Positions 27,485 through 33,375 of a DNA stretch of 36,242 bases are shown one piece after another (within the stretch, counting starts at the first letter, position 1; every line of letters begins with the position of its first letter). Made by a program: the position numbers and the translations under genes. Origin of the DNA: Abditibacteriaceae bacterium (GTDB taxonomy: Bacteria; Armatimonadota; Abditibacteriia; Abditibacteriales; Abditibacteriaceae); the NCBI GenBank assembly GCA_031372065.1, contig JANMKN010000122.1, positions 1 to 36,242 of the forward strand. Reading direction: 5' to 3'. The notes beneath the pieces are model-generated. The model did no database searches, had not been told where the DNA came from, and saw only the letters and a program-made list of their open reading frames with translations.

Positions 27485-27551
27485 CAGTGGTCGGTGGGCA
27501 GTGGTCAGTGAGCAGAAAAACTGACCACCGACCACTGCCCACTACCTACTG
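27485..27551. repeat. inverted heptamer tandem repeat
   Basis: CAGTGGT CGGTGGG CAGTGGT CAGTGAG ... CTGACCA CCGACCA CTGCCCA CTACCTA. Confidence 0.8.
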
Positions 27552-27553
27552 AA

Positions 27554-27922
27554 ATGTCAACTTCCTCCACTTTTTACAAAAAAACGCTCGCCAACGCGGA
27601 AATGGCGCAGGTGATTTTTCGCGTGGCGGTTCTGGAAAAATATCGCGAATCCAGCGATGCGCGCGTGACGCGCACCAATACTGTCGGACGCGTCAAAGGC
27701 ACCTCGTGGACGTTGGATTTTGGCATCGCGCCCGATGAAAACAGCGTTCATGTGCCACTTTCGGCGCTCAAAACGCGCTTGCCCGAACGAGAATTGGAAC
27801 ATTGGCTTTCGTTTGTGGATGATTCGCGGTTTTCTGAAAATTTCCTGAAAATGCAATCTTCTCACGCTTGCATTGATGACGGCGGCTATCGCGAATGGGG
27901 CGAAGAAGAAGCGCTATTTTAG
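27554..27922 (+). CDS. hypothetical protein (122 aa)
   Basis: Typical codon usage; co-oriented with the rhodanese gene. Confidence 0.7.
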   Translation: MSTSSTFYKKTLANAEMAQVIFRVAVLEKYRESSDARVTRTNTVGRVKGTSWTLDFGIAPDENSVHVPLSALKTRLPERELEHWLSFVDDSRFSENFLKMQSSHACIDDGGYREWGEEEALF

Positions 27923-27955
27923 CATCAATGCTAAAAGCCACCGCAAAAAATAATC

Positions 27956-27984
27956 TTGACAACGCAACGGTCAAACAGTAAAGT
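27956..27984 (+). promoter_or_regulatory. sigma70-type promoter
   Basis: TTGACA (27956-27961), 17-bp spacer, TAAAGT (27979-27984); A-rich UP-like tract upstream. Confidence 0.75.
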
Positions 27985-28044
27985 TTCGATTCGTTTGCAA
28001 GTCGCAACGCAATTTCAAATCCATTACCCAAGGAGGTGCCTGCT

Positions 28045-28149
28045 GTGAAAAATCACAATTCATTTCAACCCAGTTTTAGTTTCAGTTCACCGAACCCTTT
28101 TCCGGCAGGGCACCTTGCGGAATGCTTTTGGCGCGTCTTGATTTCATGA
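28045..28149 (+). CDS. putative attenuator leader peptide, 34 aa, MKNHNSFQPSFSFSSPNPFPAGHLAECFWRVLIS
   Basis: AGGAGG at 28031-28036, 8 nt before GTG; AGT codons at positions 10, 12 and 14; lies between the promoter and the terminator. Confidence 0.75.
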   Translation: MKNHNSFQPSFSFSSPNPFPAGHLAECFWRVLIS

Positions 28150-28180
28150 CCGCTTAATGCATTCAATTTTTCGCATAGAG

Positions 28181-28219
28181 CGCCCTCACCGGAATTTCGG
28201 TGGGGGCGTTTTTGTTTTT
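28181..28219 (+). terminator. attenuator terminator
   Basis: CGCCCTCACCG-gaattt-CGGTGGGGGCG (11 bp, one G:U) followed by TTTTTGTTTTT. Confidence 0.88.
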
Positions 28220-28221
28220 CA

Positions 28222-28306
28222 GGTGGGTTGGCTGAGTGGTCGAAAGCGCTTCACTGCTAACGAAGTGAACCTATGGGTTCCGGGGGTTCGAATCCCTCAC
28301 CCACCG
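28222..28306 (+). tRNA. tRNA-Ser (anticodon GCT), no encoded CCA
   Basis: Acceptor GGTGGGT/ACCCACC plus G73; D arm GCTGAGTGGTCGAAAGC; anticodon loop CT-GCT-AA (GCT at 28256-28258); long variable arm GAACC/GGTTC; T arm GGGGG-TTCGAAT-CCCTC. Confidence 0.93.
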
Positions 28307-28325
28307 CTGAGGTTTTGAAGTCATC

Positions 28326-29387
28326 ATGAACAGTGCAGTTTCTCTAACTCCGGCGCGTTTGCCGGAATTTTTATTGAATGTGGCAACGGTGCGTCCGGTT
28401 TTCATCTGGGGGCTGCCGGGCATCGGAAAATCCTCGCTCGTCGAAGAATTCGCGCGCAGTGTTGGTTTGAAATGCGTGTCGCTTTTGGGTAGCCAACTGG
28501 CGCCGGAAGACCTTATCGGCGTGCCCCGCATCGAAGACGGCAAAAGCATTTTTTGTCCGCCGCGCCTCATCGCGCGCGACGAGCCGTATTGCTTGTTTCT
28601 TGACGAATTGAACGCTTGCTCACACGAAGTGCAAAAGGCGTTTTATTCGCTGATTCATGACCGCCGCTTGAGCGAATATGAATTGCCAGCGGGTTCGATT
28701 GTTATTGGTGCGGGCAACCGCGCGCAGGACAGCGCCATTGTCAAACCGATGTCTTCGGCGTTGCTCAATCGCATGGTTCATGTGCATTTGCAGGTGTCGC
28801 ACCGTGATTGGCTGGCTTGGGCTGGAGCGAATGGCATTCATCCTTTGATTCTCGAATATATTGGGCTGCGTCCCGACCATTTGTGGAGCGCACCGCCCAA
28901 ACATGAAGAGCCTTTTTCCACGCCGCGCTCGTGGCATATGCTGTCCGATGCGCTGAATGCGGCGGGCGCAAGCGGCGAAAGTGCGGGCGATGAACTGCTG
29001 GACGTTTTGTCCTTTGGCTGCCTGTCGCCGCAACACGCCGGGCAGTTCAAAGCGTTCAACAAGCAACTGCGCCATCGCTATCAATTGAATTCGATTCTCA
29101 AAGGCGATGTCGGTTGGCCGCACGCGCCCGAAGACCGCGATGTGCTTTATTTTCTGGCGCAATCGCTGCGGGCGCGCTTGATGAAAGAACTGCCGCCAAC
29201 GCGCGAAAATTTAGGCGGCTCGCAGCAGGAATTGGCCCATCGCGCCAAGGCTTTGCTAACCGAACTGGCCGGTCTCAGTTTGGAAATCGCGCAAATGAGC
29301 GTGGCCGAACAAGACGGGCAAACTTTGCCCGCGTGGTTTATGACCGAAATCGTGCGTGACTTGCCGCGCTTGGTGGTGAAGAAATAA
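28326..29387 (+). CDS. MoxR/dynein-related (AAA_5-like) AAA+ ATPase
   Basis: WGLPGIGKS Walker A, DLIGVP, LFLDELN Walker B, GAGN sensor I, ALLNR arginine finger, TPRSW sensor II. Confidence 0.9.
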   Translation: MNSAVSLTPARLPEFLLNVATVRPVFIWGLPGIGKSSLVEEFARSVGLKCVSLLGSQLAPEDLIGVPRIEDGKSIFCPPRLIARDEPYCLFLDELNACSHEVQKAFYSLIHDRRLSEYELPAGSIVIGAGNRAQDSAIVKPMSSALLNRMVHVHLQVSHRDWLAWAGANGIHPLILEYIGLRPDHLWSAPPKHEEPFSTPRSWHMLSDALNAAGASGESAGDELLDVLSFGCLSPQHAGQFKAFNKQLRHRYQLNSILKGDVGWPHAPEDRDVLYFLAQSLRARLMKELPPTRENLGGSQQELAHRAKALLTELAGLSLEIAQMSVAEQDGQTLPAWFMTEIVRDLPRLVVKK

Positions 29388-29436
29388 TTTCGTTTCCCCC
29401 TTCTTTTCAAGGGGAGGGGAAGGCAGGATAGGGTTT

Positions 29437-31248
29437 ATGGCACGCAAAAAGAGCGGCGAAAACAAACGCGATGTTGCGACGGAAAATTTTAGCGCGGGCA
29501 TGGTTTTGGTGTCGCGCCATCCGATTTTCGCACGTTTATGGCAATACGCGGCGATTTATCGCAGCGAAAGCTATGCGATGCCCGCCGATGGTTGGGCTTA
29601 TGTCACGTCCAACGGCGAAATTTTCGCGCATCCCAAACGCCGCGCCGCGCCCGAAGAATGGCTGCACGTTTTCGCGCATTGCCTGCTGCACTTGGGCTTC
29701 GGACATTTCCGCGAACGCGAAAATGCTGCCGCGTGGCAAGCGGCCTGTGATTGCTATGTCGCAAAGTTTTTGGGAGACATGAAATTGGGCCGCGCGCCGC
29801 TGGAAATGCAAGGCGCCATCGAAATGGCGCGCGATGAAGAAACGCTGTATCGCCGCTTTTGCGAAAACGGCGTGCCGCCCGGCACTCTGCATTTGGGCGC
29901 GCTTGGCCCAACGCGCCCAGATATGGTTTTCGTGGCGCCGTCAGCTTATCAGTCGTTGTATCGGGCGAAGCCATCCGATTGGTCGCGTTTGCTGGGTGAA
30001 GGCTTGGCTGATGCGGTTTCGGATGCCGTCAAAGTGGCGGCGGGCGTCTTGCCGCATTTAGGCGCGACAACTACGATGCGCAGCGCCGCGCAACGCGCCC
30101 GCGAGTGGTTTGTTTCGTCGTATCCGCTGCTCGGCGCGTTGGTGACGGCCTTTGATATTATTGAAGATCAGCTTTTTAGTCATCGCAAGGAAAATTCCGT
30201 GGCGGCGGTGGATATTGAAGGGCGCGAAATTTTCATGAATCCGGCGGCGGGTTTGGATGAAATGGAGTGCCGTTTCGTGATGGCGCACGAAATTTTGCAC
30301 GCCGCCTTGCGCCACGATGCACGGCGCCAAGGGCGCGATGCGTTTTTGTGGAATGTTGCCTGCGATTTCGCCATCAACGGCTGGCTGATAGAAATGGGCG
30401 CCGGTGAAATGCCTCGTTTGGGTGGTTTGCACGATGTCGAACTGAAAGGCTTGTCTGCCGAAGCGATTTATGACCGCATTGTCACGGATATGCGACGCTA
30501 TCGCAAACTTTGCACGCTGCGCGGCGTGGGCGCGAGCGATATTCTCGAACGCGGCACGCCGGATTGGTGGAATTGTCCGGCGGGCGTGACTTTGGACGAG
30601 TGGTATCGCCGCGCTTTGGGGCAAGGATTGGAGTTTCATCAAAGCCACGGGCGCGGCCTTTTACCCGCTGGTTTAATCGAAGAAATTCGCGCTTTGGCCA
30701 TGCCGCCGGTGCCGTGGGATGTCGAATTGGCACGTTGGTTCGATCAGCATTTTCCGCCGCAGGACAAAGTGCGCTCCTATGCCCGCGCCAGCCGCCGCCA
30801 GATGGCAACGCCGGATATTGCGCGTCCGGCTTTGGTGCGCGACAAAGAACTGCCCACGCGCACTCTCGGCGTGGTGTTGGACACGTCCGGTTCGATGGAC
30901 AGGCGCTTGTTGGCGCAGGCGCTGGGCGCAATTGCATCCTACAGCGTGGCGCGCGAAGTGCCCACCGCCCGTGTTGTTTTTTGCGACGCACAGGCGCACG
31001 ATGCCGGTTATATGGCGCCCGAAACCATTGCCGAACGCGTCCAAGTGCGCGGGCGGGGCGGCACCGTTTTGCAGCCGGGCATTGACCTTTTGCAAGACGC
31101 CAACGATTTCCCGCCCGATGGCCCGATTTTGATTATCACCGACGGCTATTGCGACCACGTGCGCGTGCGCCGCGAACACGCTTTTTTGCTGCCCGAAGGC
31201 CACAGTTTGCCTTTTGTGCCGCGCGGCCCGGTGTTTCGCTTGAAGTGA
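29437..31248 (+). CDS. DUF2201-like putative metallopeptidase plus VWA domain protein
   Basis: AHCLLH...WQAACD and AHEILH...WNVACDFAIN peptidase-like units; VWA MIDAS LDTSGSM, GRGGT, IITDG. Confidence 0.85.
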   Translation: MARKKSGENKRDVATENFSAGMVLVSRHPIFARLWQYAAIYRSESYAMPADGWAYVTSNGEIFAHPKRRAAPEEWLHVFAHCLLHLGFGHFRERENAAAWQAACDCYVAKFLGDMKLGRAPLEMQGAIEMARDEETLYRRFCENGVPPGTLHLGALGPTRPDMVFVAPSAYQSLYRAKPSDWSRLLGEGLADAVSDAVKVAAGVLPHLGATTTMRSAAQRAREWFVSSYPLLGALVTAFDIIEDQLFSHRKENSVAAVDIEGREIFMNPAAGLDEMECRFVMAHEILHAALRHDARRQGRDAFLWNVACDFAINGWLIEMGAGEMPRLGGLHDVELKGLSAEAIYDRIVTDMRRYRKLCTLRGVGASDILERGTPDWWNCPAGVTLDEWYRRALGQGLEFHQSHGRGLLPAGLIEEIRALAMPPVPWDVELARWFDQHFPPQDKVRSYARASRRQMATPDIARPALVRDKELPTRTLGVVLDTSGSMDRRLLAQALGAIASYSVAREVPTARVVFCDAQAHDAGYMAPETIAERVQVRGRGGTVLQPGIDLLQDANDFPPDGPILIITDGYCDHVRVRREHAFLLPEGHSLPFVPRGPVFRLK

Positions 31249-31343
31249 AAACTTTGATCTGATAACTATTGCGGCAACTTAGAGCGTTCACGCGGCGTCG
31301 AAAGCATTGCTTTTGACGCCGCGTTTTTTTGGCAAGTTTTCTT

Positions 31344-33063: not shown

Positions 33064-33090
33064 AAACGGCTTTTCGCACTCAAAAATGCC

Positions 33091-33375
33091 TTCGGTAAAC
33101 GTTTCCCGACCTTCGCGGGCTTCCCGGACGGCTTCCGCAAACGTTTCCCGAAGGCATCTGGAAAGCCCGGCAGACTCGGCAAACGTTTGCGGGACGCGCC
33201 GGGGAATGTAGGAATACTTGGCAAACGTTTGCCAAGACCATCGGGGAAGCCCGGCAGAGTCCGCAAACGTTTGCCGAAGGCACCGGGGAATGCAGGAACA
33301 CTTGGGAAACGTTTGCGGAGCGTGTCGGGGAATGCAGGAACACTTGGGGAACGTTTCCCGAAGGCGCTGGGGAAT
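33091..33375. repeat. 42-bp period tandem array with palindromic AAACGTTT core (7 units)
   Basis: Cores start at 33097, 33139, 33181, 33223, 33265, 33307 and 33349 (last one GAACGTTT). Confidence 0.92.

Follow-up and report, generated by a model that had tools for sequence, protein, structure and literature searches.

What controls a tRNA gene whose last base lies 19 nucleotides (nt) before the start codon of an ATPase gene, and what could such an arrangement be good for? The question is raised by a contig of an Abditibacteriaceae bacterium (NCBI GenBank assembly GCA_031372065.1, contig JANMKN010000122.1, positions 1 to 36,242 of the forward strand), referred to below as the window. These 36,242 nt form contig C378 of the 6.14-Mb source genome, G000; genomes G001, G002 and G003 are congeners. 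Here, a second, divergent tRNA-Ser(GCT) gene is preceded by a promoter, a short open reading frame (ORF) and an intrinsic terminator, and is followed by genes for a MoxR-type AAA+ ATPase and a DUF2201 peptidase-VWA protein. The reading that we prefer, to which the sequence evidence lends a probability of a little under 0.6, is that a leader-peptide attenuator senses the speed of AGU decoding and gates a spare tRNA-Ser(GCU) together with a recruited ATPase/peptidase-VWA pair, likely to act on stalled or damaged translation complexes. The elements of the locus are the following (window positions; aa, amino acids):

27928..31270, + strand: inserted cassette of promoter, leader, terminator, tRNA, ATPase and peptidase-VWA genes, delimited by congener comparison, ends approximate
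27956..27984, + strand: predicted sigma70-type promoter, TTGACA-17-TAAAGT, 10/12 match, with an equivalent promoter before the G001 leader
28030..28036, + strand: leader Shine-Dalgarno (SD) sequence AAGGAGG, recognised in the sequence
28045..28149, + strand: leader ORF of 34 codons with a GTG start, encoding the peptide KNHNSFQPSFSFSSPNPFPAGHLAECFWRVLIS after the start residue
28072..28086, + strand: putative sensor run, AGT being leader codons 10, 12 and 14, decoded by tRNA-Ser(GCU)
28090..28200, + strand: antiterminator hairpin, predicted by folding, capturing the 5' arm of the terminator
28177..28221, + strand: intrinsic terminator, GC stem of 16 pairs and U tract, -26.3 kcal/mol, its end abutting the tRNA
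28222..28306, + strand: tRNA-Ser(GCT), second divergent copy (ARAGORN 28222-28307; Rfam RF00005 55.8 bits, 28222-28306)
28326..29387, + strand: MoxR-type AAA+ ATPase, 353 aa (Pfam AAA_5)
29437..31248, + strand: peptidase-VWA protein with DUF2201_N and DUF2201 (Pfam), 603 aa
31290..31331, + strand: operon-closing terminator, the ancestral terminator of the upstream rhodanese operon (z -5.5; placed at 31271-31330 in the congener comparison)

The leader and the unit behind it

The first-pass annotation had taken positions 28222..31248 for one attenuator-controlled operon, with the ATPase start codon 19 nt behind the tRNA discriminator base, the VWA gene 49 nt behind the ATPase gene and neither promoter nor terminator between tRNA and ATPase. 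Both spacings were confirmed (discriminator G at 28306, ATG at 28326), and a scan of the tRNA-ATPase interval for promoter-like and terminator-like sites found none. The attenuator itself lies upstream of 28222 and is present in the sequence. A promoter-like 9/12 match at 29361-29388 is at chance level, six such matches having been found with 4.6 expected. The tRNA-ATPase junction is bridged without differences by contigs from two samples of one study (X1, 27516-28795, and X2, 28265-28819), of which X1 may be the source sample itself. The SD sequence of the ATPase gene is weak (GAGG, 28309-28312). A small purine/pyrimidine hairpin without a U tract occupies 29393-29425, between the ATPase gene and that of its partner, where the gap is much shorter in most relatives.

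In G001, G002 and G003, the terminator that closes the operon in the window comes immediately after the stop codon of a 122-aa gene, and the 3.35-kb unit from promoter to VWA stop is missing at the site in all three congeners. The unit is thus best explained by a single insertion with the boundaries of an operon; these boundaries fit one operon and leave undecided whether its parts arrived together. With this insertion and no internal promoter or terminator found, one attenuator-gated unit of tRNA, ATPase and VWA genes, which would be transcribed together, is the best reading of the region. Duplications, direct repeats or att-like repeats were not found at the tRNA end or in the flanks, leaving integration at the tRNA unsupported, and in codon usage both protein genes resemble the rest of the genome. 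The insertion has left the rhodanese operon and the leader without a terminator between them. The 122-aa gene, which follows the rhodanese gene (27554-27922), is conserved in five of five family genomes searched and has no match in Pfam, NCBIfam, PADLOC or PHROG.

The sequence in front of the tRNA has the layout of a leader-peptide attenuator: a promoter, an SD sequence and a short ORF lie upstream of the intrinsic terminator, and the arrangement is conserved in G001. An alternative in-frame GTG at 28036 overlaps the SD sequence and was judged the less likely start of the leader. The whole leader folds better than all 200 of its shuffled versions (z -4.23), and the hairpin at 28090-28200 reaches -44.3 kcal/mol (z -4.98), a stability attained by none of 200 shuffles. 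When a ribosome was moved along the leader codon by codon in a folding model, capture of the terminator 5' arm was stable with the A site at codons 1-14 and gone by codon 18, with a similar result for G001; in both genomes, the AGT run ends where the antiterminator is predicted to start failing. In the whole-leader minimum-free-energy fold, the SD sequence of the untranslated RNA pairs with 28099-28118, which makes it a predicted anti-antiterminator, a hairpin that taken alone lies within the range of shuffles (z -0.72). At the Rfam gathering score, the tRNA is the sole match in the window; no T-box or other Rfam leader was found.

Serine codons, spare tRNAs and leaders across the family

AGT accounts for 0.64% of the codons of G000. 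For the best 12-codon window of the leader, the probabilities under two backgrounds were 0.012 and 0.034 for AGY, and 0.0003 and 0.003 for AGT. The Ser leaders of G000 and G001 have AGT at 7 of 71 codons, compared with 9 of 697 in 19 other family leaders, 18 of them from rtcB and one from an ABC transporter (Fisher p 2.5e-4); in this comparison, the two AGT leaders are homologues within one genus, and the choice of AGT over AGY was made post hoc. Leaders of tRNA arrays, with ORFs chosen by eye, were examined for codon matching as well: 11 of 12 window codons in the G014 leader are decoded by the downstream Arg, Cys, Asp and Ser tRNAs, and 12 of 12 in the G005 leader by its own downstream tRNAs, in each case with 0 of 5000 genome-background draws doing as well. 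A phylum-wide pattern matched in 269 genomes, with a convincing AGT leader in none of the 18 inspected outside the family, and the matches listed from a metagenome scan for further leader-tRNA units with a loose pattern were mostly ordinary tRNA-Ser(TGA) genes, none showing the leader. The G024 leader resembles that of G014: loci L315 (G014:C4) and L363 (G024:C192) carry runs of only Cys, Arg, Asp and Ser codons ahead of Arg/Cys/Asp/Ser tRNA arrays, and in L315 a 1057-aa protein without a Pfam match is encoded after the last tRNA of the array.

The other tRNA-Ser(GCT) of G000 is located at C208:20745, behind a plain promoter. The window copy differs from it in the stems and at position 32, does not encode CCA and has an A31-C39 mismatch in the anticodon stem (positions in standard tRNA numbering). 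A second-type copy was found in 11 of 26 other family genomes: one, in G001, has a terminator-type AGT leader, two (G009 and G018) have an AGT ORF running into the tRNA, and three are in arrays behind a terminator. The G001 unit comprises a promoter, a leader with four AGT codons, a terminator and the tRNA, lies at a different site and is followed by a convergent gene, with no ATPase; relative to the window leader unit, its stems have changed yet are still paired. In G001, which is 85% complete, the second-type copy is the only tRNA-Ser(GCT) found, so it may not be a spare there.

Because G001 has the leader and tRNA without the ATPase, and because none of the ATPase relatives surveyed (the best 80 of 358 in GTDB, many with loci that end at contig ends) follows a tRNA-Ser, the sensor, matched to serine (AGU), appears to belong to the tRNA rather than to the gene pair. 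The control codon represents a single serine box; this suggests a signal of tRNA supply or damage, not of amino-acid supply.

A different arrangement was seen in G009 (L318, G009:C3:3395056, - strand) and G018 (L316, G018:C246:1425, - strand). There, a tRNA-Leu(CAG) is followed by an SD sequence and a 26-codon ORF with two AGT codons, which enters the second tRNA-Ser(GCT) gene and has its stop codon in the anticodon loop. Reverse-complementary to the D arm and anticodon stem of the tRNA, the SD region gives folds of -61 and -54 kcal/mol. A translation-controlled switch of tRNA maturation may be at work, with either direction of control; that an AGT-stalled ribosome frees the cloverleaf was not borne out by the folding model.

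The same leader design recurs before other genes of the family. Among 26 rtcB loci, three have too little upstream sequence; promoter, SD sequence, leader ORF and terminator are present in 18 of the remaining 23, two have the terminator only and three have none of the elements. The leader peptides of rtcB are not conserved. A strict genome-wide scan of G000 returned six promoter-to-terminator units, which precede spare tRNAs in three cases (the window and two clusters), rtcB, an ABC transporter and one ordinary tRNA gene. In locus L062 (G000:C272:139-6960, - strand), an eight-tRNA array lies behind a leader and terminator and is followed, 29 nt on, by genes for DIP1984, RlaP, a 1094-aa HEAT-repeat protein and KptA; protein genes behind attenuated spare tRNAs are thus a local pattern, with a precedent for the window.

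Further observations on these loci include a leader and terminator ahead of spare His, Trp and Thr tRNAs (L063, G000:C4:9975-10703) and the leader-terminator design at L067 (G000:C211:5259-7800, - strand), where an ABC transporter follows together with a DUF1854 gene of the kind associated with cyanophycin. The leaders of two eight-tRNA arrays, L062 (C272) and L369 (G001:C707), end in ALAA, like the tmRNA tag of G000. Among the family rtcB loci (L287-L312, with G000:C405 and C398), a few of the genes have long in-frame insertions that look intein-like.

The ATPase/DUF2201 pair and its neighbourhoods

The ATPase matches AAA_5 with 49.5 bits (cut-off 22), AAA_3 staying below its Pfam cut-off. 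Its Walker A (GLPGIGKS), Walker B (LFLDE), sensor-1 (GAGN) and arginine-finger (NR) motifs are intact and invariant in 40 relatives. The top ten Foldseek matches of the model fold are NorQ, with CbbQ at rank 19; sequence matches point to midasin, and three of four plasmid relatives are annotated as MoxR family ATPase. In the partner, DUF2201_N and DUF2201 score above the Pfam cut-offs (93 and 32.2 bits). It consists of a degenerate zincin-like module (HCLLH), an intact zincin (HEILH and H293) and a C-terminal VWA domain with the MIDAS motif DTSGS, and contains an internal duplication (28% over 102 aa, E 2e-6). Residues H284, E285, H288, H293, D482, S484, S486, T543 and D569 are invariant, and, HEILH being among the conserved features, the partner is a predicted metallopeptidase-VWA protein. 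Its structural model (pLDDT 83.6) gave VWA fold matches, none under E 0.001; NCBIfam and PADLOC gave no match, nor did the PDB give a strong one by sequence. PHROG labels the partner 'HNH endonuclease', which was rejected because it conflicts with the motifs of the protein. At least 4553 homologues of the partner were identified, the closest being 88%, 81% and 76% identical.

Modelled as a complex, ATPase and partner scored 0.56, with 0.00 for the best control, which lends the complex weak support. Of 157 solved pairs, 116 attain this mark, as do 2 of 215 mismatched ones, but 18 of these solved pairs and both mismatches score no higher than 0.60. Contact agreement was at least 65% and partner pLDDT at least 73; like complexes (NorQD) have already been solved. 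A second, distant ATPase/DUF2201-like pair is encoded in G000 downstream of genes that encode large repeat proteins (L002, G000:C29:3224-5388, - strand), with an ATPase of 38% identity and a partner of 387 aa.

The first-pass annotation had argued that co-regulation by a ribosome-stalling sensor points to a role of the pair in translation stress, and had named beforehand a survey of homologues as able to overturn this idea. The survey divided it. The partner adjoins the ATPase in all 80 loci; the association with tRNAs did not hold (any tRNA in 5 of 80 loci, a tRNA-Ser upstream in none), and that with attenuators mostly failed, with a terminator-like hairpin just upstream of the ATPase in 1 of 79 loci by the strict finder, which missed AT-rich Clostridial leaders found by eye and with a relaxed cut-off, and in 7 of 79 by the relaxed one. 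The link to RNA repair stood: RtcB, RtcA, RlaP, PrfH, Hen1 or Pnkp is encoded within about 6 kb in 17 of the 80 relatives (Pfam-checked), with 13 loci looking operonic, one a remnant and three weak or peripheral.

The gene order SPFH-rtcB-rlaP-ATPase-VWA-rtcA is found in eight related Burkholderiales-type genomes, rtcB and/or prfH stand ahead of the pair in Clostridia, a Nitrosospira record has rtcB-rtcA-rlaP-rlaP-hen1-ATPase-VWA-pnkp, and rtcB is near the pair in a Desulfatiglandales record. In a quick tree, the repair-linked loci occupy at least six positions. The background of such proximity in G000 is 26 of 4790 genes, a figure that is understated because contigs are short. In G000 itself, the pair is not co-located with an RNA ligase or healing enzyme; other contigs carry rtcB, hen1, pnkp, rlaP and kptA.

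Five Clostridia share an AT-rich, attenuator-like leader with alternative pairings and two U-tract hairpins, for which no Rfam match was found. It is positioned directly before the ATPase in three (L122, L123 and L142), before rtcB-prfH-ATPase in one and before a deletion derivative in one (L140 and L124 being the remaining two loci); in L124, what is left of the start of rtcB is fused to what is left of the end of prfH.

Since 17 of 80 relatives adjoin repair genes in several lineages, the translation-stress clue for the pair survives, and it appears to hold independently of the tRNA sensor. The notion of a general sensor that evolved for the pair is not supported, the leader being AGU-matched and the tRNA's own. 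A response to toxins or phage, also proposed at first, found no direct support, and the PADLOC defence profiles returned no family for either ATPase or partner. Elsewhere in the window, palindromic repeats with 42-nt spacing are arrayed between two genes (33086-33365).

Mechanism, competing explanations and known systems

According to the preferred reading, plentiful charged tRNA-Ser(GCU) would let the ribosome clear codons 10-14 and melt the antiterminator, and transcription would end at 28221. If tRNA-Ser(GCU) were cut, modified or uncharged, or if early elongation were slowed, the ribosome would wait at or before codon 14, the structure at 28090-28200 could fold and RNA polymerase would read through. 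Processing would then release the tRNA and leave an mRNA that encodes ATPase and partner behind a leader of 19 nt. The ATPase ring and its MIDAS-bearing partner would form a remodelling pair, which most likely grips, pulls or cuts protein in stalled or damaged translation complexes and might thereby give access to RNA-repair and release enzymes. The sensor would have evolved for the tRNA, with the pair recruited behind it later in this lineage. An extension to the whole family can be offered only tentatively, as we consider it rather doubtful: its whole translation-damage response might run on leader-peptide attenuators, each having as control codons those read by the spare tRNAs that it releases, and the tandem-zincin VWA/MoxR pair might be an ATP-driven protease or remodeller of the RNA-repair pathway, induced here specifically on destruction of tRNA-Ser(GCU).

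Several observations weigh against the preferred reading, besides the homology and the post hoc codon choice mentioned for the two AGT leaders. Equilibrium folding favours the terminator at every ribosome position (about 0.95), so the switch would have to be kinetic; the fold of the naked nascent RNA also captures the 5' arm (0.7), so failed initiation may give read-through as well. Codon matching was rejected for the C4 leader of G000 (2 of 12 codons, p 0.66), was not significant for the G013 leader, was borderline for the C272 leader (9 of 12 codons, p 0.09 and 0.017) and gave p values of 0.08-0.16 for those of G009 and G018. In five cases in the family, the second copy of tRNA-Ser(GCT) stands without a leader. 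The link between tRNA and pair was seen only in G000, being found in none of the 80 GTDB relatives and none of 10 phylum relatives (partly the same records). Finally, no repair gene was detected near the pair in 63 of the 80 relatives, and a single Comamonadaceae-type clade accounts for 8 of the 17 repair-linked ones.

It is conceivable, if unlikely, that the attenuator-tRNA unit is real and that the pair landed behind it by chance, borrowing its transcription for a job, such as generic remodelling or proteolysis, that is unrelated to serine decoding or translation stress. The G001 unit lacks the pair, the neighbours in 63 of 80 loci are varied, the pair is patchy in the genus, with no close copy found in G001-G003, and, in the quick tree, the supported clade of family relatives does not include the window copy. 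Chance, however, fits poorly with repair-gene neighbours that recur in unrelated lineages, with Clostridia that put the pair behind an attenuator-like leader of their own, and with an insertion whose boundaries coincide with a whole operon and which no duplicated tRNA end or flanking direct repeat marks as an integration.

A general translation-stress sensor, comparable to the whiB7 upstream ORF (uORF) or the family rtcB leaders, would answer ribosome-targeting antibiotics, and its AGT run would be incidental or structural. We regard this as improbable: AGT is enriched over other leaders, the G014 and G005 leaders are codon-matched, and AGT is also present in the differently built G009/G018 leaders. 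The explanation draws on the model, in which a stall at any of codons 1-14 would keep the antiterminator, on the unconserved rtcB leader peptides of the family, and on Anabaena, in which antibiotics that act on the ribosome induce spare tRNAs and rtcB (PMC8421152, PMC10272220). It overlaps with the preferred reading, as a codon-tuned attenuator would respond to early stalls too.

That the hairpin just terminates, now also rhodanese read-through, while the tRNA is silent or decaying and the pair barely expressed or served by an unseen promoter, would agree with the missing terminator between rhodanese operon and leader and with the A31-C39 mismatch, but is very hard to credit given that promoter, leader, terminator and tRNA are conserved elsewhere in G001 with stems changed but paired, that the antiterminator has a z of -4.98 and that both genes are intact with their catalytic motifs.

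Leader-peptide attenuators are classically known from trp, his, leu, thr and pheST, and MoxR AAA+/VWA pairs include RavA-ViaA. The locus resembles the attenuators of amino-acid and aminoacyl-tRNA-synthetase operons in its promoter, its short ORF with a run of control codons, placed at the switch point, and its competing hairpins; unlike in those operons, the regulated genes begin with that of the very tRNA that decodes the control codons, not with one for an enzyme or a synthetase. Streptomyces provides further examples of leader-peptide attenuators (PMC8079986). The locus would thus represent leader-peptide attenuation applied to a tRNA gene, an application that we did not find in print in the searched literature, the scope of which excluded most subscription papers.

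The mycobacterial whiB7/wblC attenuator (PMC10274678) is similar in that a terminator coupled to a uORF senses stalling, with the codon content of the uORF adjusting the response and acting back on supply; that uORF gates a transcription factor, whereas here tRNA arrays, rtcB and the ABC transporter each have a leader of their own. In Anabaena, the silent trn array and the TrcR regulon (PMC8421152, PMC10272220) likewise comprise spare tRNAs that are co-regulated with rtcB and induced by translational stress. The TrcR regulon uses a repressor and promoter repeats, from which the leader architecture described here differs, and the strings 'attenuat' and 'leader' are absent from the main text of PMC8421152. 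If our reading is true, the tRNA gene would be gated by a run of the codons that its product decodes, a direct feedback loop on tRNA supply. It would also explain how spare tRNAs and rtcB can stay silent, until they are needed, in a lineage with no regulator known for them.

The protein pair resembles NorQ-NorD, CbbQ-CbbO, RavA-ViaA and midasin in combining a NorQ/CbbQ-like ATPase fold with an adjacent, MIDAS-bearing VWA partner, and has the peptidase-VWA fusion in common with a MoxR/metallopeptidase-vWA pair of jumbo phages (PMC7824862, PMC7159879). It differs from the known MoxR/VWA pairs in the partner of about 600 aa with two zincin-like modules, one of them degenerate, and from the jumbo-phage pair in neighbours that point to RNA repair rather than virion assembly. 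In the searched literature, supplements lying outside its scope, no link of the pair to RNA repair was found described, under DUF2201 either; in the passages searched, MoxR and vWA were not found in PMC7790460, nor vWA in PMC12776372 or PMC6514570. Relatives of the pair occur inside all three kinds of repair or rescue operon, rtcR-rtcB-rlaP-rtcA, rtcB-prfH and hen1-pnkp (PMC6514570, PMC7790460, PMC12776372). For a pair that is both widespread and uncharacterised, this recurrent place in operons of the rtcB-rlaP-rtcA, rtcB-prfH and hen1-pnkp kinds indicates a pathway where its client might be sought, and makes a role in rescuing damaged translation both testable and likely.

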